Source: a bacterium (GTDB lineage Bacteria; UBP14; UBA6098; B30-G16). Taken from it: DNA of 59,674 nt. The stretch is taken from NCBI GenBank assembly GCA_021159335.1, contig JAGGRZ010000085.1, positions 1 to 59,674 of the forward strand, read 5' to 3'. The notes below the pieces were generated by a model. It saw only the letters and a program-made list of their open reading frames with translations, ran no database searches and was not told the DNA's origin. This document shows, in pieces, positions 11,988 through 28,533 of this stretch. Made by a program: the position numbers and the translations under genes. Each line of letters begins with the position of its first letter. The first letter of the stretch is position 1.

Positions 11988-12012
11988 AATATCGTTTGAC
12001 GCTCGATTCAGA

Positions 12013-12039
12013 ATAAAAAGGGGCTCACTTACGAGCCCC
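12013..12039 (-). terminator. Rho-independent terminator closing the 28533->12083 gene block
   Basis: The minus strand reads GGGGCTC-GTAAGT-GAGCCCC followed by TTTTTAT. It starts about 43 nt after the stop of the TPR-PEGA-NHL gene. Confidence 0.65.
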
Positions 12040-12082
12040 TACACTCTACACAATAAAGATTTTTATTGCTTCGTGCTGTTCA

Positions 12083-15000
12083 TCACGGCTTGTAATTGTT
12101 GTCCCAGCTTCCTTTAAGAACCGTCAAACCTTTCAGGTTAGCAAGATAAACCACCGATGCTGGGCCCTCGCCGATCTGAGAAACAGCTTTTGGCGCTGGC
12201 GCTCCTGTTGCGGCTATAGAAAGCGGCTCAAGTTTCGGGGTGTATTTAATAAGAGTATTGGTCGCGTAGTCAGCCACGAACACAAAGCCATCGGGCGCGA
12301 CATAAACATACGCAGGCTGTTTCTGGTCGGGAAGCTCGACATCACCAAGATATTCGCCACCAATGGAGAAACGAACTATTTTACCTTTCCCTATGTCAGC
12401 CACGAGAATTTCGTCGCCGTTCACAGCGACCGAAAGCGGATGAACAAGCTCATCCCGACCGAACTCTTTTTTGAACGACTTGCCCTCGAAAACCACTATC
12501 CTGTGATTCCCAGCATCCGCAATGTAATAAACGCCCTCAGAAACAGCCACACCAGCAGGCATCCAAAGCGGGCTGCTACCGTATCTTTCCCCGCTATATG
12601 CTATAACATCGAACTTAAGTTTTGCAGCCTTAACTGGTTTAACCTCTTCAGCTGCTTCCTCACCTTCAGCGGTGGTGGATTCCTCCGGTTCCTCTTTTAT
12701 AACCTCAGATTTCCCGGGTATAAGCCTTATAATCTGGTTCCTTTTGGGGTCAGTTATTATAAGTTTCCTTCCATCGAGTGCCAGTCCACCAACACCACCA
12801 ATGGTAAGGTCGCTGTACCTGAACTCGCCTTTTTTGCTCCCATCCTTGGATAACCATATTATCTTGTGGTCTTTCGCGTTCGCAACGAATGTTTCAGAAC
12901 CATTCGAGGAAACCGCTATGGCGTATCTCGTTCCCGAAACCTCGCCCGTAGGTGTATACTTAACCGCTTTCTTAAGCGTTATAGTTATCCTCTCGGAGCG
13001 AGTTATCTTTATCTTGCCGTCCCATTTGTAGAAACCTTTCTTCTTAACCACGACCTCATGCGTTCCTCTATTGGTGGTTATCTTGTAAAGTGATGGCTTA
13101 CCGCTTACTGGCTTCGCTGCGTCTGGCTTGCCGTCGAATATGATAGTTTCCTCGCCACCCTTAGGCTCGATAGCGAGCTCAATCGTAACATGAGTTTCCG
13201 GCGGACGGTCCGGGATAAGCTTGTCAATGTCAGGTATTTCCTTATATCTTGAATCCTTGTGCCAGATGTACAAGCATTCATGCTTTTTTCTTGCTCGCTC
13301 CGCCTCCTCGTCCACAAGCCTTTCGTATGTCATAGGAGCTTCCTTATACCTTGGAAGTGCCGAAGCCGCCGATGCCTGCGCACGACACGGTAGCTTGGAA
13401 AGTTCAAGGTCAGCTTTCTGATACCAATAGTCAGTTTTGTTGCGTATGGTCTTAAGAATTGAACCTAATGCTCTTGCTGCATCAGCACAACGATTCTGCT
13501 CCTCTTTTATTATCGCATATGTGAACGCAGCTCTATAGTGTCCTCTGGCTTTAAGCGGCGAAAGAAGCGACAAAGCAAGGTCATACTTGTTTATATTGAA
13601 GTAGCCTATACCTATAACATACTTCGCCTCGTCCCTGAAAGGCGATGTGCAACCCTCAAGAACGCCTCTCGCCTCTTCTATAGTTGCGGGGGCTTTATCC
13701 TTCTCCTGAACTGTGGCAAGTTTAACGAGAGCAACACCTTTAAGAAATCTTGCCCTATTTTTCAGCGCAGACGAGACTCCAGCACTGAGCACCTTGTCAA
13801 ACGCGTGAATAGCAAATCGTAGAGCAGTCTCACGCTCAAGAGCGGCAGTCTCTATGCCCTTCTGCAGAAAGTATTTTCCGGCATCGATGTACTTTTCCGC
13901 ATCCTTGGGCAACTGAAGCCCAGCAAGAGCCATGGCTGCATCGAAAACGCTTACATTCCTTTCCTTACCAAGGCTCGATTCGATGTTTATCAAGAATCGC
14001 CTTATCGCAACAATATCCCTTGCATCTTCGGTAAGATACCTGTAGTACTCACCCTTTGGGTTCTCAAGCGCTTTGTATATGTTGTCCGCCTGCCCAAGAA
14101 GGTTTATATCGCTTCTTTTCACACCCATCCAGAACAAACACTCAGCCTGCCTGAACTTGGCGTCAGCGCGAAGCTCCCTCATTTTCGTCGTTCTTATGGC
14201 ACCGCTCTTGCTCAAGAATGTGGAGAATTTTGCATTAGCTTTATCGTATTCGCTGTTGATAAAGTGAAGCCATCCAGCCCAGTAATAAGCCTCAAAGTTT
14301 TTGCTTGCTACCCTTGAGAGGTTGCTTGCGGCACTGCGTAGTGGACCATTGTAAATAAGGTAGTTAAGCAATGCACCATCAGCTATTCTGTTCAAAACTT
14401 CATCACCCCAACCCGGCGCCGAACGAAGGTCAGTAAGCTTTTCCAGTGCATCGTCGAGTTGCTTTTTGTCTCCCACCGAACCAAGTGTTATCATGTCAAT
14501 AAGCTTACCCACTTTCCCCATAAGCTGAAGGTCCTTGTATGTTCCCGCAGATGCCACCATCTTCTCGAGAATCTTCATAGAAAGCCCGAGTTCTTCCTCA
14601 GCGGCAGAAAATCGCGTCCCCTTTGCGAGTTTATACTTTTCCCACTTGTCCTCAGGAACTCTAAGATAAAGCCTTGCTATAACATAATGGCAGGTAGCTT
14701 CCATATAAGCTGCCGAAAGCGCAAGCTGCTCGTTCGAGGACATCTTAGCCTTCTTGAAGGTCTCCACTGCATCCTTCAGGAATTTCTTTGCGGTGCCGTA
14801 TTTTCCGGGATAAAATGAATTAATGTAACCAAGCTGATACTGGCAGTATCCAAGCAAATATGTCGCATTGTCGATAAGGTCCTGGAAGTCGGCTTTGTTC
14901 TTCTGAACATTCTCGTCATCGAGAAATGCCATGAGATTTCCGATAGCATTGTCCAGCTCCCTTGACTGTGCTCTTTCAGTAGCTGCAAGCTGGAATAACC

Positions 15001-15391
15001 TAAACGAACAGAGCGAACGCATGTAAACCGAGCGAACATACTCTTCACCTATTATGCCAAGGTTCTTGAATGCAAGCGCAGCATCACGGAATGTCTCCGC
15101 TGCTTTTTCTATAAGGTCTCTATCTTTACCTATTTTAGCAGCATAATATCGCGCTGTAGCAAGAAAGTATTTGGAGTAAGCCTCATCAGAGGGTGATAGA
15201 ACGCCGCCCAGCAATTGCTCGAAATCCTTTATAGCTTCCTCGAAAAGTGGCTTGGCTTTGTCCATATCGCCCGCAAGATAGCTTTTAACGCCTTTATCCA
15301 GCGCATGCGTGGCAGTAGCAAGGTCTATAGTCTGCGCCGAGGCAAGGCATAACGCCAAAAGTGGCATTGTTATTAGTAAGAATTTACGCAT
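12083..15391 (-). CDS. Large exported TPR-rich protein with PEGA-like domain and C-terminal NHL-repeat beta-propeller
   Basis: Signal peptide MRKFLLITMPLLALCLASAQ, then ~700 aa of helical TPR-like repeats. A PEGA-like segment follows (IIFDGKP..GTHEVVVKKKGFYKWDGKIKITRSERITITLKK). The C-terminus carries NHL-type blades (VYYIADAGNHRIVVFEG, ILVADIGKGKIVRFS, FVFVADYATNTLIKY). Confidence 0.75.
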   Translation of the reverse strand: MRKFLLITMPLLALCLASAQTIDLATATHALDKGVKSYLAGDMDKAKPLFEEAIKDFEQLLGGVLSPSDEAYSKYFLATARYYAAKIGKDRDLIEKAAETFRDAALAFKNLGIIGEEYVRSVYMRSLCSFRLFQLAATERAQSRELDNAIGNLMAFLDDENVQKNKADFQDLIDNATYLLGYCQYQLGYINSFYPGKYGTAKKFLKDAVETFKKAKMSSNEQLALSAAYMEATCHYVIARLYLRVPEDKWEKYKLAKGTRFSAAEEELGLSMKILEKMVASAGTYKDLQLMGKVGKLIDMITLGSVGDKKQLDDALEKLTDLRSAPGWGDEVLNRIADGALLNYLIYNGPLRSAASNLSRVASKNFEAYYWAGWLHFINSEYDKANAKFSTFLSKSGAIRTTKMRELRADAKFRQAECLFWMGVKRSDINLLGQADNIYKALENPKGEYYRYLTEDARDIVAIRRFLINIESSLGKERNVSVFDAAMALAGLQLPKDAEKYIDAGKYFLQKGIETAALERETALRFAIHAFDKVLSAGVSSALKNRARFLKGVALVKLATVQEKDKAPATIEEARGVLEGCTSPFRDEAKYVIGIGYFNINKYDLALSLLSPLKARGHYRAAFTYAIIKEEQNRCADAARALGSILKTIRNKTDYWYQKADLELSKLPCRAQASAASALPRYKEAPMTYERLVDEEAERARKKHECLYIWHKDSRYKEIPDIDKLIPDRPPETHVTIELAIEPKGGEETIIFDGKPDAAKPVSGKPSLYKITTNRGTHEVVVKKKGFYKWDGKIKITRSERITITLKKAVKYTPTGEVSGTRYAIAVSSNGSETFVANAKDHKIIWLSKDGSKKGEFRYSDLTIGGVGGLALDGRKLIITDPKRNQIIRLIPGKSEVIKEEPEESTTAEGEEAAEEVKPVKAAKLKFDVIAYSGERYGSSPLWMPAGVAVSEGVYYIADAGNHRIVVFEGKSFKKEFGRDELVHPLSVAVNGDEILVADIGKGKIVRFSIGGEYLGDVELPDQKQPAYVYVAPDGFVFVADYATNTLIKYTPKLEPLSIAATGAPAPKAVSQIGEGPASVVYLANLKGLTVLKGSWDNNYKP

Positions 15392-15472
15392 ATACTTACC
15401 TCCCGATTTTATTCTAAATAGTGTCGCTTCCCAAGTTAAAACGCTTCATACCTGGTTTTTCTTAGTCCACAA

Positions 15473-16021
15473 TCAGAAAAGCGTTCCCTTAACCACGGTG
15501 AATCCGACCTGACGAACCATTTCACGCACATTCCCAAGCCTCGGAACCTCTTTCCCCGCCTCAGCCTCAACAAGAACTATCCTTCCCGGGTCCACCTCTA
15601 TCCTCTTTTTCGCCACATCAACCTTGATCCTCATCGCACCTTTGCCGAATCGCGTATAAGTCCACCCTTGTATCACCCTTACGATGTAATCGTTAAACTG
15701 AGGTAAACTCGTCCTCTGGATTATGGTCGGCGAAATAACTGAAACCTCAACGGTGTATTCCACTATTATGGGCTTATCAGGAATACCGTAGTTTTCCTTT
15801 ATGTAGTTGAATTCTATGTAATCTGTTGCGTTAGCTATTCTGAATATTGGTGGTGGAGGTGGTGTATATCTTATGGTTATCTTTCCCAGACCACCGCGAA
15901 ATATTATTTTGGGACCCTCGGGGATGTTTATGTAAGATTCTCCGCCACCGCCGCCGCATCCGAGAACAAGCAGGCTAAGCAATGCCAGCAAAAGCGCTAT
16001 TTTAAGTGTTTTTGTTTTCAT
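15473..16021 (-). CDS. Lipoprotein with poly-proline tract in the TonB gene position (divergent TonB-like or novel periplasmic component)
   Basis: Lipobox LLVLGC followed by a Gly run, and YTPPPPPIF. The start overlaps the upstream exbD stop (ATGA). No canonical TonB C-terminal signature is recognisable by eye. Confidence 0.5.
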   Translation of the reverse strand: MKTKTLKIALLLALLSLLVLGCGGGGGESYINIPEGPKIIFRGGLGKITIRYTPPPPPIFRIANATDYIEFNYIKENYGIPDKPIIVEYTVEVSVISPTIIQRTSLPQFNDYIVRVIQGWTYTRFGKGAMRIKVDVAKKRIEVDPGRIVLVEAEAGKEVPRLGNVREMVRQVGFTVVKGTLF

Positions 16022-16581
16022 ACCCGTCCCCTCCGTGACTTTTTGATCTCCACCTTAAGGTCCGAAAGCGTGCCTCTGACCCAGGCTATCTTCGCTATGC
16101 CTATCGAGTGCATGAACCCAGTTATCCTTACAACATCACTGTATGGTATATTTCCTGGAGCTCTTATTATGACTGCAGGGTCGTTATCCCTTATATCGAG
16201 CAGAAAAGCTTTCAACCCTCGCTCATCGTAGATAACTCTATATCGCTGTGCAGCATTTCTGAATGCCACATATGCAGACGGAATTTTAACTATTTGTCTC
16301 TTGTCCTTGAACCAATTGTAAAACTCAGCGGACTCGTCGTTGCCCTGAAGGACATAATAATCGAGTCCACCTGTGGGAGTTTTGTGTATCTGAATAAGGA
16401 CGGATGCCTCTGCATCGCCTCTTTTAGGCGTAGGAAGGTTCATAAGCCCTTCAACCTGCGGCGCCGACTTTATAGCCGGAAGAATCGATATCGAAACAAG
16501 GAAAAATATCATTAGTTGGAATATAATGTCCACAAGTGATGTAAGTTCCGTTGCAGGGAGCGGTTCTACTCGTCTTTTCAT
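16018..16581 (-). CDS. exbD: Biopolymer transport protein ExbD/TolR (long form, paralogue 2)
   Basis: N-terminus MKRRVEPLPATELTSLVDIIFQLMIFFLVS is the ExbD/TolR signature with its TM segment. It is 187 aa, longer than typical. Confidence 0.85.
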   Translation of the reverse strand: MKRRVEPLPATELTSLVDIIFQLMIFFLVSISILPAIKSAPQVEGLMNLPTPKRGDAEASVLIQIHKTPTGGLDYYVLQGNDESAEFYNWFKDKRQIVKIPSAYVAFRNAAQRYRVIYDERGLKAFLLDIRDNDPAVIIRAPGNIPYSDVVRITGFMHSIGIAKIAWVRGTLSDLKVEIKKSRRGRV

Positions 16582-16595
16582 TTGCTATCACCTCC

Positions 16596-17138
16596 CTAAA
16601 ATAGTCTTTTCTTGATGTGAGAAAATCTGAACCCTACTACTTCGATGGAGTCTCGGTCGCAGAATTCCATTATATCGAGAATGTATCCGAAAGGCGTATC
16701 CTTATGAGCGCGTATCTCAAGCCGTGGAGGTGGATTCCCCATAAATATCTCATCTTCAATCCTCCGCTGAAGTATCCTTTTCGCTTTTTCCAACGGGAAT
16801 GGACCATGCGCATGAGAAGACTCGGCTTCTGCTTCTTTAACTGTTGGCACCGCAGGGTCGAGTATATATGCTGCAAGGTCACCATTGAAAGGTGGCTTCT
16901 GTAATCTATCTATATGAAGTAAGTATCCCTCAGTAACCTCCCAATCCACTGATGAGAGCTTTTCAACCGCAGGGAGTTGAGGTAAGTCCTTTTTCTCCTG
17001 ACCCGCTACCTGTGCCGCAGACTGCTTAAGCATCGTTCCCAGCGCCATGGTAACCATGAAGAATATTAGCAACTGAAAGATAATATCCACAAGTGATGTC
17101 CACTCGGCTTTTGGAAGTGGTTCTTCGCGCCTCTTCAT
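16596..17138 (-). CDS. exbD: Biopolymer transport protein ExbD/TolR (long form, paralogue 1)
   Basis: MKRREEPLPKAEWTSLVDIIFQLLIFFMVT signature; 180 aa; lies 14 nt after the exbB stop. Confidence 0.85.
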   Translation of the reverse strand: MKRREEPLPKAEWTSLVDIIFQLLIFFMVTMALGTMLKQSAAQVAGQEKKDLPQLPAVEKLSSVDWEVTEGYLLHIDRLQKPPFNGDLAAYILDPAVPTVKEAEAESSHAHGPFPLEKAKRILQRRIEDEIFMGNPPPRLEIRAHKDTPFGYILDIMEFCDRDSIEVVGFRFSHIKKRLF

Positions 17139-17152
17139 AGTCTACCACCTCC

Positions 17153-18490
17153 TCAAGCCTGGTTAAGGATGTTTGTCATAATCTCTTCCCACTTACCGAA
17201 GATCCAATCGACTTTACCACGATAATAGTAGTGCAGAAGCATCATAGGTATTCCGAACATAAGACCTACAATGGTGGTTATCAAAGCGACATAAATACCA
17301 CCTGCAAGCTGCGGCACGATAACATTAAGCTGGACATTAGGATTGGTTCTCACGGTTTCCTCGATTTTACCGAATGCCTGTCTTATACCTACAACCGTTC
17401 CAAAAAGTCCGAGCATGGGCTCAATAGACCCAACAGCCCAGAGTGCTGTTACCTCCCAGCCTTTCAGTTGGTCGACTTCCTTAATCATGGTATTATCAGC
17501 AGCACGGTCCATCTCTTGGGAAGCATAGAAATTGTTCCTGTTAGCCCTGTGGTTTTCCAACGCAGCAAGGAATACCCTAACAGTCGGATAATCGAGCGGC
17601 TTTTTGGGGAGCTTTATGCCCGGCACACCATTTTTGCAAATCTCTATGGCTTTCTCAACATTGGGCAAACCAATCTCAAGCCATTTCCTCTTAGCAATCT
17701 CTTCCTCGACTTTCTCATCTGCCTTAAGGAAGTCCTCCTTAGTAGGGAAGTCCTCAGGTCCTACAGACATGGATTCCATAGCTTTCGACCAGTATTTTGC
17801 CACCTCGCGAAGGAATATATTACCTCTTTCGCTCTCCACCTCAGTTTTACCTACTCTATCAACAGGAAGGATTCTATAAAGAAGGCTCGGTTTATTCGGT
17901 GGGAATATGTTAGCCAGCCATAATCTTCGCCAGATAAGTATCCATGTTACTATCCCGAACAAAAGGAGCGCGTGCTGAGCAATCATGAATGCTTTACCAC
18001 CTCTTTTGATGAAATTCCAGTAGGCGGCAAATATTCCTCTTTTTTTAGTAACGACAGCGGCATGCTTGAAAACAACACCCTCTGCGAAGTCCCATTTCGA
18101 CGGATACGGCGGCGATGCCAAGACCACTCGCCACCAATAGTGCTGACCGAAATTGAGACCTGTGAATATCACGGAAAGCTCATTTGTTTCCTTTTTATCA
18201 GCTATTGTGGTGAAGGTAGAATCGGTGGAGACTTCAGCACGAAATGTAAGCCCGAGGTCAGATGGGGACATTACTTTTTCCCAATCGGAATAGGTTTTCC
18301 TTCTGGGATTATATCGTTTAATATAGACTTCCCATCCAAGTGTTACCTGAAGGTTTCCAGCTTCGTCCTTTGACTCATCTGCTGACGAAATATGAACCCA
18401 AATAGAGTCCATGTACTCTTGTGCATGCACTGGCATCAGTGCCATAGCGCTTAAAACCACAAGAGCCAGCAGTGTTAGTTTCCCGTGCAT
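17153..18490 (-). CDS. exbB: MotA/TolQ/ExbB proton-channel protein with N-terminal signal peptide and an extra periplasmic domain
   Basis: C-terminal channel motifs (EPMLGLFGTVVGIRQAF, LAGGIYVALITTIVGLMFGIPMMLL). The N-terminus is MHGKLTLLALVVLSAMALMPVHAQ plus a ~140-aa beta-rich domain. GGAGGAGG SD. Confidence 0.85.
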   Translation of the reverse strand: MHGKLTLLALVVLSAMALMPVHAQEYMDSIWVHISSADESKDEAGNLQVTLGWEVYIKRYNPRRKTYSDWEKVMSPSDLGLTFRAEVSTDSTFTTIADKKETNELSVIFTGLNFGQHYWWRVVLASPPYPSKWDFAEGVVFKHAAVVTKKRGIFAAYWNFIKRGGKAFMIAQHALLLFGIVTWILIWRRLWLANIFPPNKPSLLYRILPVDRVGKTEVESERGNIFLREVAKYWSKAMESMSVGPEDFPTKEDFLKADEKVEEEIAKRKWLEIGLPNVEKAIEICKNGVPGIKLPKKPLDYPTVRVFLAALENHRANRNNFYASQEMDRAADNTMIKEVDQLKGWEVTALWAVGSIEPMLGLFGTVVGIRQAFGKIEETVRTNPNVQLNVIVPQLAGGIYVALITTIVGLMFGIPMMLLHYYYRGKVDWIFGKWEEIMTNILNQA

Positions 18491-18556
18491 TACTACCTCC
18501 TCCTTTTACTTTTGTTTTCTATTTTGCTGTCCTTAATAGTCAATATAATTTAACGA

Positions 18557-18585
18557 TATTTAAATGCCACTATTTCTCGTGTCAA
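18557..18585 (-). promoter_or_regulatory. Sigma70-like promoter upstream of exbB
   Basis: Minus strand: TTGACA (18585-18580), 17 nt spacer, TAAATA (18562-18557). It lies in the 116-nt gap between the PorV-like gene and exbB. Confidence 0.45.
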
Positions 18586-18606
18586 CACAATATTTTCCGA
18601 AAAAAT

Positions 18607-20409
18607 TTACAGAGAACCAGCGAGTTTCCGCATATTCTCAGCTTCTTTAGTCATTCCAAGCTTATCGTAGATGTTCGCAGCCCTTTGAGCAGCAGCGGTA
18701 ACCACCTCTCTGTCCGCATCTGGGTAAAACAGTATTATGTCAAGATAAGCTATTAAAGCGTTCTTCGCATTATCCTCTCCACCCTGAGCAGCATAAATAT
18801 CGCCCATAAGCAATAAGGCATCATCGGCTATGGAATTGTCCTTGTATTTTTTCGGGAACATGGGGTAAGATAGCCTGCCCCAATTTTCGTCGTAAAATCC
18901 AAAGCCAAACTTTTGAACGAGCTTCTTAAGAAGCCCTATAGCACCAGTTGGGTCACTTTCACGCGTCAGATAAGCAAGTCTGTACATGGCGAGTGGTCGC
19001 ACGGGATCCTCAAGCTCTGTCATGTTAGCTATCTCGGTATAGAGCGCCTTAGCGCTATCGAGATATCCCAGAACCTCATATGTGTACGCAAGATCGTATT
19101 GAAGTCTTACATCATATTGGGCGCTATCGCCACCAAGGGAAATAAGATCCTGTATAAGATTCTTCGTCTCCTCGTTTATCTGTTTATGCATCGAAACCTC
19201 AGCGAACATATAATGAGTTCGCTGTGAGAACACAAGGTTCGAACCTTCAGTAGCGAGTATGTTCTGCACCCAGTTCGCGCCAAATTTTCCAATGTAAGCT
19301 TCCTTGAAGAATGGATAAATATCTTTGAAATTAGGCGCTGCGGAGAGTGGTGCTTTCTTGCTTTCATAAGTAAAGTAGCAGTCACCAAAAATAAGGTTCG
19401 CTTTAGCACCTATAAGACCGTCCTTATCCAGCAATCCCTCAAATTCCGTTAGTCTCGCACATGGATCCGTTTGAGCCATAAGGTCCGAAAGCTTATAACG
19501 CTCGGCACCGTGAAAAGTAAGCGTGAACCTCATGTAATCATTGCCCACAGGATTCATAACAGCGCCAGCATAGTCGAGTGAAGGTCGCCCAAGACCACGC
19601 ATCGAACTTATCATCCTGTCGAGAGCGAGTCCCAGCCCGAATGTGACCTCGTTCATGTTATAGCCACCGCGAAGCAGCAGGAACTTGGTTATCTTCGCCT
19701 CTACTCCAAAATGAGGTCTTATCACATCCTCGACTTTCTCCACATCAGCAAGCAGGAAAATACGCCTTATCGGCTTTATTCCCACGCCAAACCTTATAAC
19801 CATTGGGAGTTTATCTCCAGCTATTTCAGATGCTCCAAGATTGTATACAGCCAGTCCGACGCGGAACTTTCGCATTATGTCCTTGGTAACCACGCCGAAA
19901 TCAACGCCTCCAAATCCGCTTGCGGAATAATCGCCCATGGAAGAACTCAGATACTTTCCCGAAATACCCATTCTGAACCTTCTTCCCCAAAACCATCTTC
20001 CGAAACCGGCGCTTATAGCAATATCGTTGAGCGAGAACTCGCCTGTCGGTCTGCTGAACTGGTCTCTGCCTTCAAATTTCGATATACCAAAGCTTGTCAG
20101 AGATAGCCCTATATTGCCTATTTTCCCGATAGGATAGCCGAAAGAAACATTTTCATACCTCGAGTCGAGGAACAGCTGTGCATGGGTTACTGCAAGCTCC
20201 CATCTTTCGAGAGCACCCAGTCCTGCGGGGTTGTAAAGCAGCGCATCAGCATTGTTTACAATAGTAGAGTATGCGCCACCAAGAGCAAGTCCTCGCGCGC
20301 ATGTGCCGAACCTCAGGTATTCACCGGGTTTGCCGTAAACCCCGTCCTGGGCTAACGCAAGGCTTATTATAAGCCCTAATGCGATAATTAGGTATCCAGC
20401 GGATCTCAT
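18607..20409 (-). CDS. PorV/PorQ-like outer-membrane beta-barrel fused to a C-terminal TPR (BamD/YbgF-like) domain
   Basis: Signal peptide, then the motif ARGLALGGAYSTIVNNADALLYNPAGL and an alternating beta-strand pattern for ~300 aa. About 300 aa of helical repeats follow (LAYTYEVLGYLDSAKALY, DALLLMGDIYAAQG, YLDIILFYPDADREVVTAAAQRAANIYDKLG). Confidence 0.65.
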   Translation of the reverse strand: MRSAGYLIIALGLIISLALAQDGVYGKPGEYLRFGTCARGLALGGAYSTIVNNADALLYNPAGLGALERWELAVTHAQLFLDSRYENVSFGYPIGKIGNIGLSLTSFGISKFEGRDQFSRPTGEFSLNDIAISAGFGRWFWGRRFRMGISGKYLSSSMGDYSASGFGGVDFGVVTKDIMRKFRVGLAVYNLGASEIAGDKLPMVIRFGVGIKPIRRIFLLADVEKVEDVIRPHFGVEAKITKFLLLRGGYNMNEVTFGLGLALDRMISSMRGLGRPSLDYAGAVMNPVGNDYMRFTLTFHGAERYKLSDLMAQTDPCARLTEFEGLLDKDGLIGAKANLIFGDCYFTYESKKAPLSAAPNFKDIYPFFKEAYIGKFGANWVQNILATEGSNLVFSQRTHYMFAEVSMHKQINEETKNLIQDLISLGGDSAQYDVRLQYDLAYTYEVLGYLDSAKALYTEIANMTELEDPVRPLAMYRLAYLTRESDPTGAIGLLKKLVQKFGFGFYDENWGRLSYPMFPKKYKDNSIADDALLLMGDIYAAQGGEDNAKNALIAYLDIILFYPDADREVVTAAAQRAANIYDKLGMTKEAENMRKLAGSL

Positions 20410-20442
20410 ATTTATTGCCCCCTTTTATGCTCAAAGGTTTTA

Positions 20443-23400
20443 TTATCGCTCTATCCCTTTCCAGACCGCGATTTTACGCTTAATTTGCTTACCACCTATG
20501 TCAACAATGCATATGTAGCCACCATTGGCAACTATGTCTCCGTTGTCGTTCCTTCCATCCCACTGAATTTCACCCTCGCGGGAATCGGACTTAAGCGTTT
20601 TCGTTCCGCTCCAGACAAGATTACCGAACATATCATAAATCTTTATGTCAACGGTAACACCTGGTGTCGGTGCTTTTATCCTTATGTATGTTTTCTCCTT
20701 CGTTGGGTCGAAGGGATTGGGGAAGTTTATAACCTCTTGAGGCGACCAATCTATAACTATCTGATATGTCTTGCTTTGTGACGGGTTTTCCGCCTTGTCA
20801 AGCACCTGAGCGTAGATAAGCCTTGCGCCCGCCAGAAGAGCATCGATATGCTCAGGCGGAAGCGGAACATCCTCGGGATAGTAAGGCTCATCCGCAGCAG
20901 TATAAATAACCTCAGGATTAGCTGGGTCAAACTCTATAACCTGAACATTGTAATCGAAATTAGGGGACTCAGAAAGTCTTACCGCATAAACCTCACCAGG
21001 TGGTGTATCCTGTGGATTGAATATGATAATCCTTAATTCTTTGCTATCAGACCAATTGGGGTCATCGCTATCGATGTCGTGCGCTTCGATTCTGTCCATT
21101 GTGGGCGGTATCGTATCAAGGATTATTGCGTCCACATTAACCGGGCTGACATACTTGCCCTTCTTAACCTGGCAGTAGACATGTTTTACCTCATTGGTAG
21201 CGTTAGAGAATGTGAACTCGTGAACCCTTTCGAATGGTATCCAGGCACTGGCAAGCAATGCTGGTTCAGTCTCAGCGAATCGCATGGAATCGGGAGTAAC
21301 GAAGGAATTTATGACAGTAAGCACTGTCTGGCTGTTGGTGAATTCGCTGTCAAGCGTATCGTTTGGTGCTACTACTTTGAAGTCAATCTTACTCCACGGA
21401 TAGAAATTCTTCACCTCGCTCGCGTTTCCTGCGGAGTCCACGACCACCACCTCAACAGTATATAGATTGTGGGGGTCAAGCATATCAGCCAGCGGGAAAT
21501 CAACATTGAAGTCAGGATATGTTCCCCATTCGTCCCTAACTACTGCGCAAGCTATGGTATCGAGTTCAACCACTCTAAAGCATACCTTCCAAAGATGACC
21601 ACCATCTGGCTCATCTGTTATGGACATCGGGATAGTATGGGGCAATGTCGTGGTATCAGTATGGGTTAATGGTCTGAATTCAAACTGGGGCGGTATAGTA
21701 TCGTATCCGCCGTGAACCACAATGTCGTGCCAGTTACCAGCACCATCCATAGCACCGCCAACAATATCGAAACTTCCTTCCACACCGTCTCTTATTATAA
21801 GTTGCACGCTGTCATTAGGATAGGGCACCATTATGCCACCGCCACCTGCTACAACAACGAATGGCCTTGGTGCCCATAAACTATCCTCAAACGGACCGAT
21901 GAAATGAAGAGAGTCGACACCCGAAAGATTATCGTTAGCTTCGGGTATTGATGCGTATATGTACCGTTCGTTAGCCCACCCCATATGGGCGCGGAACACA
22001 TTAGGCCACCTATCAGCCTTCGTGGTATCCCAAACGGTGAATCCCTGGGGAATGTCGGGATAAGTTTGATCGAGGATTATAGAGGCTTCCACACGGGGCG
22101 AAACCGTATAAGCCACCGACCTCACCCAACCGTAAACAACCTTCTCACCCTCTCCGGGAGGAACCTGGAAAAGAGTGTCATTATCACCAGGATAAGGTAT
22201 CCAGCCGGGTGCATCTGGTTCAGGTGGGACTGTATCGATTGAAAGGTAATATGCATCAGGTGGTGTAACATATGTGGTAAACAGAACGCCAACCGTCGGA
22301 GAATTGGTATATGTGGTGAAGGCATGTCCTCTATCAGCATCAAAAAGCGTCATCTCAACTCTTATTTCTGTTCTGTAAACTATCTCGTCTGAAGCCATGA
22401 CACTTATGTTCCCCGCATGGTCTTTAACGGCTACATAAAGCTTCTTAACGCCCTGCTCGGGGTTAGTGAATGTATAGCTGAGAAGATGGTCGTACGGTTG
22501 CCACAATCCACCAAGATTATCCGGCCACAAAGCTGAATCCTCGAAAAATGCAATGTAAGCGGGTTCCGCTGAACCATCAACAGCATTTGTTTCAACGAGT
22601 ATCGTTAAATCGTCGGTATATTCATCGCTGTGCGAGGTAGCATCCCTTAGCGTCACCGAATTTATAACTGGACGCTGCCTGTCGAGCGTTACCCGGAAAT
22701 CTGCGGGCGCAGACCAGTTACCAGCCGAATCCTGAACGAAACCATGAACAAGCCAAACTCCATCGTGGTCAGGCAAATGAAAGTCCATAGTTGAAGAAAT
22801 ATATGGCTCCTCGACTACTATCGTGTCGCAGACTGCCTTCCGATGATAAATCCCTGTTCTCGTGTCTCTTGGGTCAACGAAAACCACTCTAACATGGATG
22901 TCGTTGGTATAGCCGCTATCGGCTATTTCCGAGGTATCGGTTGGGTCGTAGCCTACCGAGAGGTCCTCTACATTTATCCTCGCAAGATACGGGTCATGAG
23001 TGTCCAATATAATGCTCATCGAATCAGTAGCGGTGGGGAAAGCATCGTAAATGTTCCATCCGCGCGCATGAATCCATCTGACACCGTCAACACGGCTGAA
23101 CTCATGCTCAATGGTGATTGTAGTATCGGGTCTCGAAGGCGTTGGAACACCATACATAGAACGACTTCCGGCATCGTCCCATATTTCTATCGAGTCGACA
23201 TCAACACCATACCTTATGGTCACATAAACCAGATTGCTGTCGGTGTATGTTCCTGTCAAATCTGGACCGTTAATATCACGCATCGAGACTATATCAACGA
23301 AACCATTATTAATGTCATAGTATATCGAATCGTGACCTACATTAGAAATGTTTCCAGCGGAATCCTTGAGAACCACCCAGATGTGCATCCAATCACCCTC

Positions 23401-25038
23401 TGAAAATCCCGTGAATGTGAATGTCATAGTGTCGCGGAAATCCTGCCAACCAGAAGCGGGAATGTGTGCAAGCATAGATTCGTCCTGGGTAAGGAAAACC
23501 TTGTAAAACGGCGAGGACGAAGGCATGGGGTCTATATGAATTTTAACCGTAAGCTCGTCAGTAGTGTCGCTCGGAAGGTCGGTGGTCCTGTCGAGTATAT
23601 AGACAGCTCGCAGAGTTGGGGCGTCGGTGTCAAGGATAATCGTTCCCGTTTGGGGAGCAGAATAATTGCCAGCCCTATCCTTAAGCTTTACATAAATGGT
23701 CCTAACACCATCACCGGGAGTCATATTGTAAAGATATCTTCCACCAGCGGAATATGGGAAGACAGCTTTATTTTCTTCAAAATCGCTGCTTTGTGCCACA
23801 TAAACGCTTTCAATCCCCGACGCGTAGCTATCGCCGAGAGGTGGATTATCGGCGGCACCTTCTGGCGTAACCCAAACTGCGGTGGAATTGGTATAGCCCG
23901 TCTCCGCGGGAACATCCGTAGCGTGAGGAGCAGTAGTAGTGTCCTCAATTATCACCCGTGAAAATTCCGGTGAACGAGTATCTATGTTGAAAAAGATTTC
24001 CTCTGATGTTATAGGCTCAACATTGCCAGCAGAATCTATAGCCTGAAAGTAAAGACCATAGCGTCCGTCATGAGCTGTCACGAAATCTATAGAATCGGTG
24101 ACAGTAGCAGCACCACCGTAGAATATCGAGTCGTATCTTACAGGCGAGGACATGTCGAGAGAGTAGTAGATTATAACATCTCTAACTCCGCTATAGCTAT
24201 CGCTTGCCGTGAATGATACTCTGACAGAGCGCACAGTATAATACTCGGAAATCCCTGTTGGTATAACCCTTGCTTCTGGCATTCCTGTGTCAAATCTCGT
24301 CCATGTTTGAGCTGGAAGCGGACCAAAGGCGGTATTAGGGTAAATCTCGTTTCCGAGTCTGTCCTTGCCGGCGAGATAGAACTCATAATATCCATCACCG
24401 CCCACAGCAGCGGAGTTGAAGGTTATATCAGCATCAACTGGCGAGCCAGAGAATGACTCCGCTCCAAAATAAGACCATGTATCACCTGGCGCAGTTCTAT
24501 AGTAAATCTTTATTTGAGCCACATCACCTACGACGGCGTCCTCGGCGTGGAAATTTATCTCCAAACTCGGTGTGTGCGTCCAGATCCAGAGTGTTTCAGG
24601 TTCTACAGTCGGGGCGGAATTGTCCTGCCTCGAGCAAACATAGTTCGACCATGCCGAAAAAGCGTAAAGAGTACCCGAAACTGCGTAGCGATATTGAACT
24701 CTGTAACAATATCTGACATTGTCGGAAAGCGGGTCGTCGGCGGGAGTTCCGGGAAGAGAATCCAGACCTATAGTATAACTATTGTGCGGCGCATGCCTTA
24801 CTGGTATGGGGAATATCGAGTGAGTCGGATCTATCCCCGATGGGAATGTTGGGGTGCCCTCAGCTGAAACTACCTGAATATGATAAGCTATGGGATGTGC
24901 ACCCGGAGGTAGCGTCCATTGGATTCTACATGTGGTGCCCTGAGTATATGGCGGCAAAGAAAGTAGTGTCGGCGCACCCTGAGCGTAAAGCCCGACCGCC
25001 AATATTGCTATAACCCCTATTAAGCCAATCCGTTTCAT
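20443..25038 (-). CDS. Giant (1531 aa) secreted multi-Ig-like-domain surface protein with FlgD-Ig/T9SS-type C-terminal domain
   Basis: Signal peptide MKRIGLIGVIAILAVGLYAQG. Nine recurrences of a D-x-(A/L)-(G/E)-N strand motif are present (KDRLGN, IDSAGN, KDRAGN, KDSAGN, QDSAGN, KDHAGN, MDGAGN, VDSAGN, LDKAEN). The tail reads NFPNPFDPTKEKTYIRIKAP..VDIKIYDMFGNLVW..IQWDGRNDNGDIVANGGYICIV. Confidence 0.8.
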   Translation of the reverse strand: MKRIGLIGVIAILAVGLYAQGAPTLLSLPPYTQGTTCRIQWTLPPGAHPIAYHIQVVSAEGTPTFPSGIDPTHSIFPIPVRHAPHNSYTIGLDSLPGTPADDPLSDNVRYCYRVQYRYAVSGTLYAFSAWSNYVCSRQDNSAPTVEPETLWIWTHTPSLEINFHAEDAVVGDVAQIKIYYRTAPGDTWSYFGAESFSGSPVDADITFNSAAVGGDGYYEFYLAGKDRLGNEIYPNTAFGPLPAQTWTRFDTGMPEARVIPTGISEYYTVRSVRVSFTASDSYSGVRDVIIYYSLDMSSPVRYDSIFYGGAATVTDSIDFVTAHDGRYGLYFQAIDSAGNVEPITSEEIFFNIDTRSPEFSRVIIEDTTTAPHATDVPAETGYTNSTAVWVTPEGAADNPPLGDSYASGIESVYVAQSSDFEENKAVFPYSAGGRYLYNMTPGDGVRTIYVKLKDRAGNYSAPQTGTIILDTDAPTLRAVYILDRTTDLPSDTTDELTVKIHIDPMPSSSPFYKVFLTQDESMLAHIPASGWQDFRDTMTFTFTGFSEGDWMHIWVVLKDSAGNISNVGHDSIYYDINNGFVDIVSMRDINGPDLTGTYTDSNLVYVTIRYGVDVDSIEIWDDAGSRSMYGVPTPSRPDTTITIEHEFSRVDGVRWIHARGWNIYDAFPTATDSMSIILDTHDPYLARINVEDLSVGYDPTDTSEIADSGYTNDIHVRVVFVDPRDTRTGIYHRKAVCDTIVVEEPYISSTMDFHLPDHDGVWLVHGFVQDSAGNWSAPADFRVTLDRQRPVINSVTLRDATSHSDEYTDDLTILVETNAVDGSAEPAYIAFFEDSALWPDNLGGLWQPYDHLLSYTFTNPEQGVKKLYVAVKDHAGNISVMASDEIVYRTEIRVEMTLFDADRGHAFTTYTNSPTVGVLFTTYVTPPDAYYLSIDTVPPEPDAPGWIPYPGDNDTLFQVPPGEGEKVVYGWVRSVAYTVSPRVEASIILDQTYPDIPQGFTVWDTTKADRWPNVFRAHMGWANERYIYASIPEANDNLSGVDSLHFIGPFEDSLWAPRPFVVVAGGGGIMVPYPNDSVQLIIRDGVEGSFDIVGGAMDGAGNWHDIVVHGGYDTIPPQFEFRPLTHTDTTTLPHTIPMSITDEPDGGHLWKVCFRVVELDTIACAVVRDEWGTYPDFNVDFPLADMLDPHNLYTVEVVVVDSAGNASEVKNFYPWSKIDFKVVAPNDTLDSEFTNSQTVLTVINSFVTPDSMRFAETEPALLASAWIPFERVHEFTFSNATNEVKHVYCQVKKGKYVSPVNVDAIILDTIPPTMDRIEAHDIDSDDPNWSDSKELRIIIFNPQDTPPGEVYAVRLSESPNFDYNVQVIEFDPANPEVIYTAADEPYYPEDVPLPPEHIDALLAGARLIYAQVLDKAENPSQSKTYQIVIDWSPQEVINFPNPFDPTKEKTYIRIKAPTPGVTVDIKIYDMFGNLVWSGTKTLKSDSREGEIQWDGRNDNGDIVANGGYICIVDIGGKQIKRKIAVWKGIER

Positions 25039-25077
25039 AATTTTATCTCCTTCTTTTATTTCTAAACTTTGCGATTG

Positions 25078-28000
25078 TTATCGAACCATGACAATCCTCG
25101 ATATCGAACCGAACTTAGTCCCCAATGTTCTCACGAAGTAAACACCGCTGGGAAGTTCATTTCCTGCTTCGTCCTTGCCATCCCACACGAATTTAGCAAC
25201 GCCCTGAGATACTTCTCCGCTGTAAATATTTCGAATAACTCGCCCATTAATGTCAAGTATGCACACATTAATGTTATCCCTTCGCGGAATCTCGAGCTCA
25301 ATAATCGCAGTAGCATTAAACGGATTGGGGTATGCCCGCGCTACAAACTTATCGGGCACATACTCGTAATAAACTTCATACTTCCCCGCCTTAAGGCTAA
25401 GGCTCATGCCTTCCGCAAGCTCTTGCTCTCCGAAGGGACCGCTAAGCTGCCAATGCCCCTTTGGAAGCTTTTCAATGGTCAAATTATACGATTCAGGAAC
25501 CTCGATAGTCCAGTGACCATCGTTCGAACTTCCCCACATGAGCATCTCGCCATTCTCACCAACGATATGCGGCAATGACACCTCAAAGACGGGCGGCGGC
25601 ATTGGTAGGTCAATCCCATCAGTGTTAAGTTTTAGCTTTTGCCCCTCAAAGTTAAGCACGGCGACCTCGCTCTCAGGTATTATGCTCTTTCTGGCACCAC
25701 CAGCGGGAACATGAATCGTAGCCGTCGAATCGAGCAGTATGAAGTATCCGCGTCCGGGAACCAGAATGTCGGAATCCTCATACCCACCATTACGACCTAT
25801 TGTGGGGTTCCACCAGCTAAGAAGCCTTCTTGCAAGGGCACCGTTGGGGGTAACCTCGAAATCAGCTGTGTCAGATATACCACCTATCATGTGATAGCCA
25901 GCGCCCTCAAGCGTTCTTATGTACTCCGGAATATGATAACCCCTAAGCATAACATAATGGTCGCTCCGGCTCAAAACCCAGTAGCCGACACCGACTCGAA
26001 GATTGGTCACGCTCTCATAAGTTCTTGTTACCGGATTGAATGTGTAGCAATTGCCAGGAATTAACGATGGGAAAATATCGCGAACATTTGTATTACGCGG
26101 CAGAAGCGGCAAGCTGATCATGTTCCAGCCACGATAAAGGTGCATAACCACGGAATCAGTGTACCAAGATGAGTCGAAGAAAGCTATCGGCTCTGAGTAT
26201 CCACTCTCGTTGCCCCACGGGTCTATAGTCGCTATGTGGAAGTACCTGACTGGTGAACCTATAATTATGCTTCTCGGCAGTCTCATATAATGCTCGAATG
26301 TTAATGGTTCAGTTTTAACCAGCAACGGGTCACCGGTGCAAAGCCACGAGCTGTCCGCCGAATGCTGAAGTCTATACATATTGCCCAAGCCACCTGTGCC
26401 GTATGACGAAGGAGTTGTGTCGGACCAGTAAACTATAAGCCACATCTCGCCGCTCTCATACTCCGTGCGGACGGAATCGATTCTTACAGGATAGGGTGGC
26501 GTTTCACTTGAGAATCCTCGCTGAACTCCAGAGGTAGTAGTATTACCGAAATTGTCAGAAACCAATATCGTGTAGTAATTGTCCCTGAAATTGTGCCCGG
26601 GATTGGGAGACTCGTCAACGAATGTATAAACACTTATAAATGGATTATGATTTATAGTCCCTATTTCGGTTCCTAATGCACCGGGACTATTCGAACGATA
26701 AATATGATATTGTCCCACACCAACACCGGCGTCAGTGGAAGGTGAGAACCATAGCTTTATTACGAGCTCATTGGTGCACTTCGCATAACTGTGGAGCGAA
26801 TCAACAGCGGTAGGCGCAGGGGGGGTGTTATCAAAGCGTGTATTGACAACATTAGAATAAACGGATGTGTTGCCTATGGCATCCCTTGCCCAAACCCTGA
26901 AATAATACTGAGCTTCATCCAGACCACCAATGTAGTATTTAAGCGTATCCCAGTCCTCGCAAATGTGGTCGTCAGGATTGTGTAGCGACGGGTCGTGAAT
27001 GTCAAGTGGTCCTATGGTCGTGAAGTCCACAGTAAAATCGGGCGATGAGGCAACATCAATGTAAATGTCAACTATATCGCAATGGCTTGTGTCAACTATG
27101 CTAAGCGTAACACCTGTGCCGGGAGACCATGTCGGAAGAGGTATAAGCATGGGAGCAGCCGTTATTTTGTCAACTATGACGCTATCCATTCCCCTGCCGC
27201 AATAGGAATACTGGTTAAGGCTGTCTATAACCACGACAAGATAGTAGTAGGTTTCATCATCTGCCAGCCCGCTCGCAAAGTCGAAATAACGATAATCGGC
27301 ATTCAACTTGTAGCTATCAGGGCAGAAAGTATACAAAAGATGCCTGGTGTCGCCAGTATCCACTGGGAAGAACGACGATAACTCGTCATCAGTGAAACGG
27401 AAAAGCTTGTAACATTTAACGCCAGAGCCACAATCAAGCGCGCGTTCATCGGAGACATAGAAGTGAACATCTATTCCCGCCTCGCTGAGCGTTGCAACAA
27501 GGCTGTCAACACAGCCAGGTGCACCTATATCGCAGACAGCCGGAACCTGATACGACCAATCGGAAACAGTGGTATCAAGCTTTGCCCGCACGCCGAAAGT
27601 ATAAGTATGGCAATCTCTCGTGAGCCAGTTATATGAGGGTGCCACAGTCCAGACAGAAGTTAGGGTATCGCCTGTCGTCTCATCTATCTGACGATATTGA
27701 TACATTATTCCGGGGCGAGGATGGCACATGGTATGGTCAGTATAAACCGTGAACGAAGGTCTTGTAATCCAATGAGGCGGCGGCATGAGGATCGCGCATA
27801 TCGGTGTCTCGCAGAAACCCGGCCCTATAAGTCGTGCCATCTTTATCGGATTGCCGGTAAGTGGATGATGTCCTCTAACGAAAACGGGAACCCCTGCGCT
27901 GTCGTAGGGAACCACGGTATAGTAATATGTTCTACCATAAATGACATCATTATCGATATAGTAGTATATTTCCGAGCCATCGTTTGGAATAAAAGCAAGG

Positions 28001-28533
28001 AACGGGTCAGCAGCATCGATTCGCCACAAGTCGAAATATCTCATCGAGCGGTAGATGCCGTAGCCCATGATTGAGGAGGCCGAGTCAATGGTTCGTTGCC
28101 AGGTTATCTGAACATAAGTGTCAACGCCCGTAACGCAATGTGCGACATCGAGAAACGGAACGGGTGCCGGCGGGTTAATGTCGTGAACTATCGTCAGCGG
28201 GTCTGACCAGTCAGAGGTATCGGAACCGTAAAGAGCACGAACATAATATTCAAACACCTCTCCATCCTGTGCGCCCGTGAAAACGAAACTGTCCTGCGAC
28301 ATAAATATAGTCATCATCTCCATTGTCGGGCGCGCACTCACCACATGGCGCCAGAACTGATACCTCGTCCCCGCTGGATTAGACGCACACGCCGGGCTTA
28401 CTTTTATTACTATCGAGCTGTAAGGAGCTATGTGATAGCCCGGGTCGGATATAGCTGCGCAAAGTGGCGGCGGTGTTTGCGCCAGCAAAACACCCCACAA
28501 CGCAACCACCGTTATTAACACGATTCTTCTCAT
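25078..28533 (-). CDS. Giant (1151 aa) secreted Fn3-like multi-domain surface protein with T9SS-type C-terminal sorting domain
   Basis: Signal peptide MRRIVLITVVALWGVLLAQ. Repeated Fn3-type motifs are present (YGIYRS, YHIYRSNSPG; YYYTVVPYDSAG, YYYLVVVIDSLN, YYFRVWARDAIGNTS, YYTILVSDNFGNTT, YFHIATIDPWGNES). The tail reads AYPNPFNATAIIELEIP..VCILDINGRVI..FVWDGKDEAGNELPSGVYFVR. Confidence 0.8.
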   Translation of the reverse strand: MRRIVLITVVALWGVLLAQTPPPLCAAISDPGYHIAPYSSIVIKVSPACASNPAGTRYQFWRHVVSARPTMEMMTIFMSQDSFVFTGAQDGEVFEYYVRALYGSDTSDWSDPLTIVHDINPPAPVPFLDVAHCVTGVDTYVQITWQRTIDSASSIMGYGIYRSMRYFDLWRIDAADPFLAFIPNDGSEIYYYIDNDVIYGRTYYYTVVPYDSAGVPVFVRGHHPLTGNPIKMARLIGPGFCETPICAILMPPPHWITRPSFTVYTDHTMCHPRPGIMYQYRQIDETTGDTLTSVWTVAPSYNWLTRDCHTYTFGVRAKLDTTVSDWSYQVPAVCDIGAPGCVDSLVATLSEAGIDVHFYVSDERALDCGSGVKCYKLFRFTDDELSSFFPVDTGDTRHLLYTFCPDSYKLNADYRYFDFASGLADDETYYYLVVVIDSLNQYSYCGRGMDSVIVDKITAAPMLIPLPTWSPGTGVTLSIVDTSHCDIVDIYIDVASSPDFTVDFTTIGPLDIHDPSLHNPDDHICEDWDTLKYYIGGLDEAQYYFRVWARDAIGNTSVYSNVVNTRFDNTPPAPTAVDSLHSYAKCTNELVIKLWFSPSTDAGVGVGQYHIYRSNSPGALGTEIGTINHNPFISVYTFVDESPNPGHNFRDNYYTILVSDNFGNTTTSGVQRGFSSETPPYPVRIDSVRTEYESGEMWLIVYWSDTTPSSYGTGGLGNMYRLQHSADSSWLCTGDPLLVKTEPLTFEHYMRLPRSIIIGSPVRYFHIATIDPWGNESGYSEPIAFFDSSWYTDSVVMHLYRGWNMISLPLLPRNTNVRDIFPSLIPGNCYTFNPVTRTYESVTNLRVGVGYWVLSRSDHYVMLRGYHIPEYIRTLEGAGYHMIGGISDTADFEVTPNGALARRLLSWWNPTIGRNGGYEDSDILVPGRGYFILLDSTATIHVPAGGARKSIIPESEVAVLNFEGQKLKLNTDGIDLPMPPPVFEVSLPHIVGENGEMLMWGSSNDGHWTIEVPESYNLTIEKLPKGHWQLSGPFGEQELAEGMSLSLKAGKYEVYYEYVPDKFVARAYPNPFNATAIIELEIPRRDNINVCILDINGRVIRNIYSGEVSQGVAKFVWDGKDEAGNELPSGVYFVRTLGTKFGSISRIVMVR

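Follow-up and report, generated by a model that had tools for sequence, protein, structure and literature searches.

The window analysed here, positions 1 to 59,674 (59,674 nucleotides) of contig JAGGRZ010000085.1 in assembly GCA_021159335.1, comes from a bacterium of the GTDB lineage UBP14; UBA6098; B30-G16 and carries a module of eight genes in which two giant surface proteins and a PorV/PorQ-family outer-membrane barrel are encoded next to an ExbB/ExbD-type motor, a small lipoprotein and a large protein made of TPR, PEGA and NHL domains. All eight open reading frames (ORFs) that an earlier note, made from the sequence alone, had placed between 12083 and 28533 were recovered there, co-directional and on the minus strand. 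The two giant proteins are called CTD1 and CTD2 below, after the T9SS (type IX secretion system) C-terminal domain (CTD) in which they end or which their tails resemble. In order of transcription, preceded by the adjoining peptidase gene, the features of the locus are as follows.

28621..29805, minus strand: M23 peptidase (Peptidase_M23, 108 bits)
25078..28533, minus strand: CTD1, 1151 amino acids, with TIGR04183 and FlgD_ig matches
20443..25038, minus strand: CTD2, 1531 amino acids, with FlgD_ig, Big_13 and an OmpL47-type domain
18607..20409, minus strand: PorV/PorQ-family barrel with TPR, 600 amino acids, from NF033709 and an AlphaFold2 model
18557..18585, minus strand: candidate internal promoter 5' of exbB, with −35 TTGACA and a degenerate −10
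17153..18490, minus strand: long ExbB/TolQ-type stator subunit, 445 amino acids, with MotA_ExbB
16596..17138, minus strand: ExbD paralogue 1, 180 amino acids, with PF02472
16018..16581, minus strand: ExbD paralogue 2, 187 amino acids, with PF02472
15473..16021, minus strand: lipoprotein with an apparent TonB_C-like fold, 182 amino acids, from its lipobox, AlphaFold2 and Foldseek
12083..15391, minus strand: TPR-PEGA-NHL protein, 1102 amino acids, with NHL and weak TPR_6 and PEGA
12012..12040, minus strand: intrinsic terminator ending the operon (9-bp stem, 6 G-C pairs, T-run)

From CTD1 to the TPR-PEGA-NHL gene, consecutive genes are spaced by 39, 33, 116, 14, 14, −4 (an overlap) and 81 nt. The clean terminator expected after the last gene is present and is the strongest of the region 11800–30000, in which the same scan detected no terminator-like site within the internal gaps of the module. 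In the sigma-70-like promoter proposed upstream of exbB, the −35 hexamer is perfect (TTGACA at 18585–18580) but the −10 poor. Promoter-like matches of this kind are as frequent in the region as chance predicts (30 found versus 28.9 expected), so that the sigma-70 scan is no guide to whether exbB is transcribed from a promoter of its own.

By family score and predicted structure, the 600-amino-acid protein is a PorV-like barrel, as the earlier note had proposed, and the refuting condition that the note had set here, a predicted structure unlike PorV, did not come true. Residues 31–299 score 117.2 bits against NF033709, the PorV/PorQ family model (cutoff 90), and the distant counterparts of the protein in loci L059 and L063 (see below) score 96.9 and 123.7 bits respectively. 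Its scores against the equivalog models (NF033710, NF033711) fall short of their cutoffs, with 21.3 versus 250 bits for PorV and 92.2 versus 220 bits for PorQ, and this also holds for the PorV2 equivalog (51.4 versus 325 bits). Around 30 full-length orthologues were found, all in metagenome-assembled genomes, and the AlphaFold2 model, for which 25 orthologues were supplied (pLDDT 79), shows 14 beta strands (residues 69–303) followed by an all-helical half, i.e. a barrel domain of residues ~30–305 fused to an all-alpha TPR domain of ~300 amino acids. The top Foldseek matches of the barrel model were 8gl6_F and 6h3i_F (E=1e-11, target TM-score 0.59), then FadL and TodX. Both 8gl6 and 6h3i are entries of the F. 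johnsoniae T9SS translocon, and their chain F is, judging by its length, presumably PorV. The C-terminal half resembles TPR proteins in the Foldseek search, gives weak TPR matches in the profile search and also weakly matches YbgF/CpoB (32.6 bits for the L063 counterpart). Because a 14-strand barrel puts both termini in the periplasm, the TPR domain would be periplasmic.

CTD1 has a signal peptide, immunoglobulin (Ig)/Fn3-like modules and, at residues ~1066–1141, a type-A T9SS C-terminal domain. This tail belongs to the type-A sorting domains (TIGR04183/PF18962) by its position at the extreme C-terminus and by a TIGR04183 (Por_Secre_tail) score of 27.7 bits, over the cutoff of 23; it also scores 41 bits against FlgD_ig and contains the motifs YPNPFN and LPSGVYFVR and a terminal basic residue. 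CTD2 likewise has a signal peptide, followed by Big_13 (39 bits) and OmpL47-type (58 bits) Ig-like modules and a FlgD_ig-type tail (28.8 bits, cutoff 27). Nearly all the domain calls of the earlier note were confirmed by profile search. The T9SS-type tail assigned to CTD2 reaches 21 bits against TIGR04183, just under the cutoff of 23. The best profile matches of the CTDs of the module were those of PorU and PorZ, the tail of CTD2 matching that of PorU with E=2e-11. No catalytic domain was detected in CTD1 or CTD2 by profile scans and PDB sequence searches.

Both giant proteins are single-copy within the lineage and their conservation is even over the full length. In the 18 distinct loci with a complete copy, the CTD1 orthologue aligns end to end at 29–47% identity, and the mean identity is 0.36 for CTD1 and 0.44 for CTD2, with 0.43 for the TPR-PEGA-NHL protein. 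The CTDs of PorU and PorZ are retained, not cleaved. PorU:PorV and PorZ:PorQ are the anchoring pairs of the T9SS at the cell surface (PMC5562754). Given their single copy, their end-to-end conservation and CTDs nearest to those of PorU and PorZ, which are anchored via PorV and PorQ, CTD1 and CTD2, which the earlier note had called cargo, seem to be fixed parts of a structural or adhesive kind that the barrel holds, and not interchangeable cargo.

The topology of the 445-amino-acid protein, as read from its sequence, comprises a signal peptide, a periplasmic domain of ~140 amino acids, a first transmembrane helix (TM1) and then the MotA_ExbB domain (residues 305–435; 68.9 bits, cutoff 22.9), with a three-helix transmembrane core. 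It scores far under the equivalog cutoffs of ExbB (37.7 versus 206 bits) and TolQ (62 versus 221 bits) and is a member of a 'long ExbB' family marked by a cytoplasmic motif of its own, WW.SQE[MIV]DR. Both ExbD paralogues score 40.2 bits against PF02472 (cutoff 25.4). The transmembrane Asp of ExbD (D18 in both window paralogues) is kept in all 85 ExbD sequences and the GLFGT and TT (Thr) motifs of TM2/TM3 in all 46 ExbB sequences, and because of the conservation of these residues the motor looks functional.

One subclade has an extra gene of ~186 amino acids between the PorV/TPR gene and exbB (L001 11794–12354; also L009, L010, L012, L013, L024, L040 and L041), whose product, a paralogue of the periplasmic N-domain of ExbB that stands by itself, bears a signal peptide and one transmembrane helix, and a second full ExbB paralogue is present in L035, L059 and Calditrichota-type variants. 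Because such stand-alone paralogues and second ExbB copies occur, the ExbB periplasmic domain seems to have a working role in the machine. Two relatives of the long ExbB, P0131 (764 amino acids) and P0134 (761 amino acids), carry a cytoplasmic insertion of ~300 amino acids, probably a coiled coil, between TM1 and the SQE.DR motif (alignment columns ~400–760), and the periplasmic N-domain of their clade is unlike that of the window protein and, although it seemed TonB_C-like to the eye, has no Pfam match. A TonB_C-like assignment suspected for the alternative ExbB N-domain of the L035 and Calditrichota clades, from a 'W.YTPG' motif, was dropped as it had no Pfam match.

The 182-amino-acid protein, aptly described in the earlier note as a poly-Pro lipoprotein in the TonB slot, contains a lipobox (LVLG/C) whose Cys22 is invariant in the family and an equally invariant PPPxP motif (PPPPP here). 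The TonB-type N-terminal transmembrane anchor and long Pro-rich spacer are missing, the lipobox Cys standing in place of the anchor and the Pro-rich linker being only ~35 amino acids long; counterparts in L034, L060 and L062 appear to be anchored by a transmembrane helix. In the AlphaFold2 model (pLDDT 81, and >90 over most of residues 60–150) the fold appears TonB_C-like: 13 of the 22 top Foldseek PDB matches are the C-terminal domains of TonB, FusB or HasB, with probability up to 0.98, target TM-scores of 0.5–0.58 and weak E-values (0.07–1.4). The likeness is structural only. The protein has no Pfam or NCBIfam match, profile searches with its family against Pfam and the PDB returned nothing significant, and the best TonB signal at the sequence level came from a single one of 17 members (E=0.17 to TonB_2).

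The last gene encodes the 1102-amino-acid protein, presumably a scaffold in the periplasm, in which a signal peptide and N-terminal TPR are followed by PEGA and, at the C-terminus, a six-bladed NHL beta-propeller. NHL scores 52.5 bits (cutoff 20), TPR_6 and PEGA being weaker; across the family NHL is found in all 15 members and PEGA in seven of the 15, and the PDB profile search with the family returned NHL propellers (up to E=2e-59), so that family scans and profile search both uphold the TPR-PEGA-NHL architecture first read from the sequence. The family is rare, with ~12 full-length clusters among 1.84 billion representatives.

The recurrence of this gene order in relatives, which the earlier note had put forward as a check, was examined at two depths. 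A scan of GTDB species representatives yielded 23 loci of the lineage, one named UBP14_UBA6098 and two Zixibacteria (a 97%-identical variant of the window ExbB is likewise labelled 'candidate division Zixibacteria'). As far as the contigs reach, all 23 species-level loci have the order M23 peptidase, CTD1, CTD2, PorV/TPR, ExbB, ExbD, ExbD, 182-amino-acid protein and TPR/NHL protein without exception, down to 29–45% protein identity. The M23 gene precedes CTD1 in every lineage locus that extends that far, and the Memo gene upstream of it was detected by tblastn only in closer relatives. As conservation extends to these M23 and Memo genes upstream, the order within the lineage alone could be inherited synteny.

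The more distant loci were found through ExbB alone, from look-ups of gene context and from scanning metagenomes with the motif segment only, and five of them include upstream sequence (L035, L059, L060, L062, which is from Calditrichota, and L063). In all five, the gene directly upstream of ExbB encodes a PorV/PorQ-family protein that is extended at its C-terminus by at least ~300 amino acids. Further upstream, a gene for a CTD2-like giant protein is again found in five of five (L060 being linked via L062) and abuts the PorV-like gene in four; a CTD1-like protein precedes the CTD2-like one in L035 and L063. On the other side of ExbB, L035, L060 and L062 continue with ExbD, ExbD, a protein of 220–227 amino acids and a TPR/NHL homologue of 1025–1090 amino acids, and L063 with ExbD, ExbD and a 200-amino-acid protein before its contig ends; homologues of the TPR/NHL protein of ~1025–1100 amino acids close the module in L034, L035, L060 and L062. 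The upstream fragment of L061 had no phmmer match and is, by comparison with L062, the C-terminal tail of a PorV-like protein. Flanks can be read in three loci, L035, L060 and L062, and contain different genes. As the arrangement of PorV-like, CTD2-like and ExbB genes thus recurs in divergent lineages with differing flanks, the linkage of the motor to the surface-protein genes is not coincidental, and the caveat of the earlier note that it might be no longer stands.

In L035 (4703–7842), two unannotated genes of 511 and 535 amino acids without family match lie between the CTD2-like and PorV-like genes, and the longer product starts with a signal peptide and is barrel-like towards its C-terminus.

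PorV-TPR fusions also occur at greater distance, in L030–L033 (one Zixibacteria, one Elusimicrobia and two without taxon label), where all four directly follow a surface-protein gene of 1437–4608 amino acids with no motor nearby. Because these fusions follow giant genes in the absence of a motor, the unit conserved more widely pairs a giant surface protein with its cognate PorV-TPR barrel and reaches Elusimicrobia-type genomes, and we infer that the PorV-TPR barrel is the partner of the giant surface protein. These pairs lie at L030 4149–11380, L031 3–6661, L032 5687–11833 and L033 1–11587, often with a 4-nt overlap, and in L033 the gene after the fusion is FliG-like.

As the earlier note had reported for the window, no T9SS core gene (sprA/sov, porU, porZ, gldK/L/M/N) was found among the scanned window ORFs of at least 150 amino acids, nor was any found in the flanks of the module in related loci, and there is no translocon-sized barrel within the module, so that its being self-contained, as the earlier note proposed, is conjectural. 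Up to four further CTD proteins are encoded in the window outside the module.

47146-48924 and 48941-50581, plus strand: CTD proteins scoring 36 and 32 bits against TIGR04183, over its cutoff; one belongs to the TIGR03790 family as well
55374-56309 and 56393-57319, minus strand: small DUF3108-like proteins with a CTD under the Pfam cutoff (22 and 19 bits)

Judging by these additional proteins, the organism appears to use CTD sorting generally and must then possess a translocon, and the T9SS core could lie elsewhere in the genome. An indirect hint comes from the genome paper of Caldithrix abyssi, a possible carrier of the module, which reports no gliding machinery of the Bacteroidetes type (PMC5317091).

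The neighbouring window genes are ordinary chromosomal ones (Rnf, Lon, aminoacyl-tRNA synthetases, LptFG, AcrB and dnaN). Upstream of the M23 peptidase gene, whose membership of the module is uncertain, lies that of a Memo-like and AMMECR1 fusion protein (472 amino acids; 29808–31226, minus strand). At 7036–8742 (plus strand), a full LytB/IspH domain (303 bits) is joined, in one ORF of 568 amino acids, to a membrane region at the C-terminus that weakly matches UbiA prenyltransferase, maybe an unusual fusion. At 52462–54184 (plus strand), a CDP-alcohol phosphatidyltransferase gene (best matches: archaetidylinositol/phosphatidylinositol phosphate synthases) adjoins one for inositol-3-phosphate synthase, which suggests that this bacterium makes inositol phospholipids.

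We consider it likely that the eight genes form one functional system, and we lean, with less assurance, towards a fuller statement, that they encode an envelope-spanning machine in which a Ton/Tol-type motor is wired to a carrier or anchor of T9SS type. What is shown in its favour is what the parts are, how two of them are predicted to fold, that the motor residues are conserved and that the genes are linked in several lineages. The inner membrane would hold a proton-driven ExbB/ExbD (Ton/Tol) stator, made of the long ExbB with its extra periplasmic domain and the two ExbD paralogues; the periplasm, the TonB_C-like lipoprotein and the 1102-amino-acid TPR-PEGA-NHL scaffold; and the outer membrane, the PorV/PorQ-family barrel with its fused TPR domain hanging into the periplasm. 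At the surface, the barrel would hold the CTDs of the two giant Ig-like proteins, as PorQ does with PorZ and PorV with PorU. Proton flow via ExbB/ExbD would yield mechanical work, which the TonB_C-like protein and the scaffold would pass to the TPR handle of the barrel, and this work may release the barrel-bound giant proteins and deliver them to the surface, or actuate them there, or both. We infer the physical contacts, the kind and direction of the work, the route across the outer membrane and any need for a separate SprA-type translocon.

The energy chain of the T9SS also propels gliding adhesins. In secretion, T9SS energy is used to extract the carrier–substrate complex from the translocon, and some substrates travel on alternative carriers that then anchor them (PMC10994853). 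Like the attachment and carrier pairs of that system (PorV-PorU, PorQ-PorZ and the PorP/SprF type), the module encodes a PorV/PorQ-family barrel beside large surface proteins, whose C-terminal Ig-like sorting domain it presumably binds (PMC5562754, PMC9143113). Unlike in these pairs, the barrel has a fused TPR domain of ~300 amino acids and misses the PorV and PorQ equivalog cutoffs, its partners are neither a sortase nor a lipopolysaccharide-delivery protein, and there is a genetic tie to an ExbB/ExbD motor. The likeness extends to the logic of the energy chain (GldLM/PorLM motor, hub, and extraction of PorV plus substrate from SprA), in which a proton motor of 5:2 type is also linked across the periplasm, via TPR and beta-propeller proteins, to a PorV-type CTD carrier (PMC10994853, PMC8986121), whereas the motor of the module is of the ExbB/ExbD family, a TonB_C-like domain protein is present, and module and window encode neither a GldK/N ring nor a SprA translocon.

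The motor could instead be a housekeeping Ton system, i.e. a general energiser of TonB-dependent receptors that merely shares an operon with a separate surface-protein/PorV pair, which we hold to be unlikely. One ground for it is the known arrangement of Ton systems in the Fibrobacteres–Chlorobi–Bacteroidetes (FCB) group (e.g. Fibrobacter FSU_2400-2403), where ExbB, two ExbD, a small TonB_C-type protein and TPR neighbours follow one another in the same order and with the same proton-pathway residues conserved (PMC6851124); the apparent TonB_C-like fold of the 182-amino-acid protein, the TonB-dependent receptor genes nearby (8774–10675 in the window, and also in L003) and the candidate promoter 5' of exbB point the same way. 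The module departs from those systems in an ExbB with signal peptide, extra periplasmic domain and family-specific motif that is far from the ExbB and TolQ equivalog cutoffs, in a TonB-like lipoprotein with a very short linker and neither transmembrane anchor nor long spacer, and in a TPR protein that is an 1102-amino-acid TPR-PEGA-NHL giant of a rare and narrowly distributed family. The PorV-like barrel and giant CTD proteins precede the motor set in all informative loci, the PorV-like gene standing directly upstream of the long ExbB in five of five independent distant loci with different flanks in the three that are readable. If the motor and barrel do work together, they might still serve import, the TonB_C-like protein opening the N-terminal hatch of a FadL/PorV-type channel for which the giant proteins capture substrate, comparable to SusC/SusD utilisomes. 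Ton-type motors classically drive import, FadL and TodX transporters rank next after the PorV chains among the matches of the barrel model, and the giant proteins consist of Ig-like binding-type modules only, with no catalytic domain. We nevertheless judge such gated uptake distinctly unlikely: no TonB requirement is known for FadL-type channels, the module has no conserved gene for an inner-membrane transporter or for substrate processing, and the top matches in family and fold are PorV/PorQ, which have been characterized in CTD binding and anchoring (PMC5562754).

The resemblance to Tol-Pal is one of parts: a TolQ/TolR-like motor, a TolA/TonB-type domain, a beta-propeller protein, a lipoprotein and TPR elements share one operon, and an analogue of that system, with the propeller and TPR protein standing for TolB and CpoB, would serve outer-membrane upkeep or constriction at division. 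The ExbB core does score best against TolQ (62 bits), the ExbD proteins weakly match TolR, the TPR half of the barrel has its weak YbgF/CpoB match, and the M23 peptidase neighbour present in every lineage locus reaching it would fit a division role. The chance of such an analogue is nonetheless slim, since no module protein has a TolA, TolB or Pal family match in NCBIfam and none attains a Tol/Pal equivalog score (the Tol scores are far under cutoff), the lipoprotein fold appears TonB_C-like and not the OmpA-like, peptidoglycan-binding one, and such an analogue leaves no role for the PorV-like barrel and the giant CTD proteins, whose link to the motor is the most consistent of all and which have no counterpart in Tol-Pal. 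A gliding-type machine, in which the motor moves barrel-anchored giant adhesins along the surface as GldLM does with SprB (SprF) or AglRQS with the Glt complex, is a sub-case of the motor-to-carrier machine that we favour, making the same coupling claim with another output. The Myxococcus Agl-Glt machinery has one TolQ-like and two TolR-like subunits, TonB-like and TPR proteins, outer-membrane barrels and a surface adhesin, and AglR, AglQ and AglS follow the same pattern as one ExbB-type and two ExbD-type subunits. The TPR-rich periplasmic partners of the module would fit such propulsion, as would its giant adhesin-like proteins with their cognate barrel, which recall SprB with SprF and the PorP-like anchorage of type-B CTD proteins (PMC9143113). 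This output is very doubtful: no Glt, Agl or Gld family match was found among the module proteins (NCBIfam, E up to 0.01), the module contains no track or cytoskeletal partner, and its barrel and sorting domains are of T9SS type.

Several points also weigh against the coupling of a Ton/Tol-type motor to a T9SS-type carrier. The contacts between its parts are deduced ones, the TonB_C similarity of the 182-amino-acid protein is structural only (E-values of at least 0.07), and it is not evident by which path energy would leave ExbBD through a lipoprotein with a ~35-amino-acid linker and no TonB-type transmembrane helix. The Elusimicrobia-type pairs of PorV-TPR and giant protein have no adjacent motor, so a TPR domain alone implies none, and the exbB-exbD-exbD-tonB-TPR arrangement is common in the FCB group, where it is usually assigned to uptake (PMC6851124). 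A 14-strand barrel cannot let folded giant proteins through, hence a translocon must be present somewhere, and none was found in the window. Finally, in L034, whose contig is cut just upstream, the barrel-like fragment 5' of ExbB is ambiguous and not detectably PorV-like (hhalign probability 0.1); its relative L063 has the full PorV/TPR gene.

A bolder extension of the coupled machine, to which we give little weight, is that the module is the T9SS equivalent of these lineages (Zixibacteria/UBP14-type, Calditrichota and related groups), or the energy chain of that equivalent, with an ExbB/ExbD/TonB_C-type motor replacing GldLM. Such genomes would have many CTD proteins and may lack GldKLMN, and the TPR-NHL scaffold and the TPR-tailed PorV-family carrier would deliver the CTD proteins; if true, this would be an independently evolved, Ton-derived drive for type-IX-style secretion.

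Each part of the module comes from a known family and the combination is new; our literature search found no paper describing a PorV-ExbB/ExbD module. It suggests a second way to power type-IX-style surface-protein handling. The module is a natural experiment on the open question of how the T9SS motor passes its energy to the outer-membrane carrier: in no fewer than five divergent lineages, a PorV-family carrier that has acquired a periplasmic TPR handle is fixed beside a different and much better understood motor family, ExbB/ExbD with a TonB_C-type domain. If the coupling is real, Ton-type machinery can drive carrier-type barrels, and the module would offer a compact eight-gene system for force transmission to an outer-membrane protein other than a TonB-dependent receptor. 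For phyla that only metagenomes have revealed, and for Calditrichota, which has a cultured member, a conserved machine of the envelope and two major surface proteins would also have been identified.

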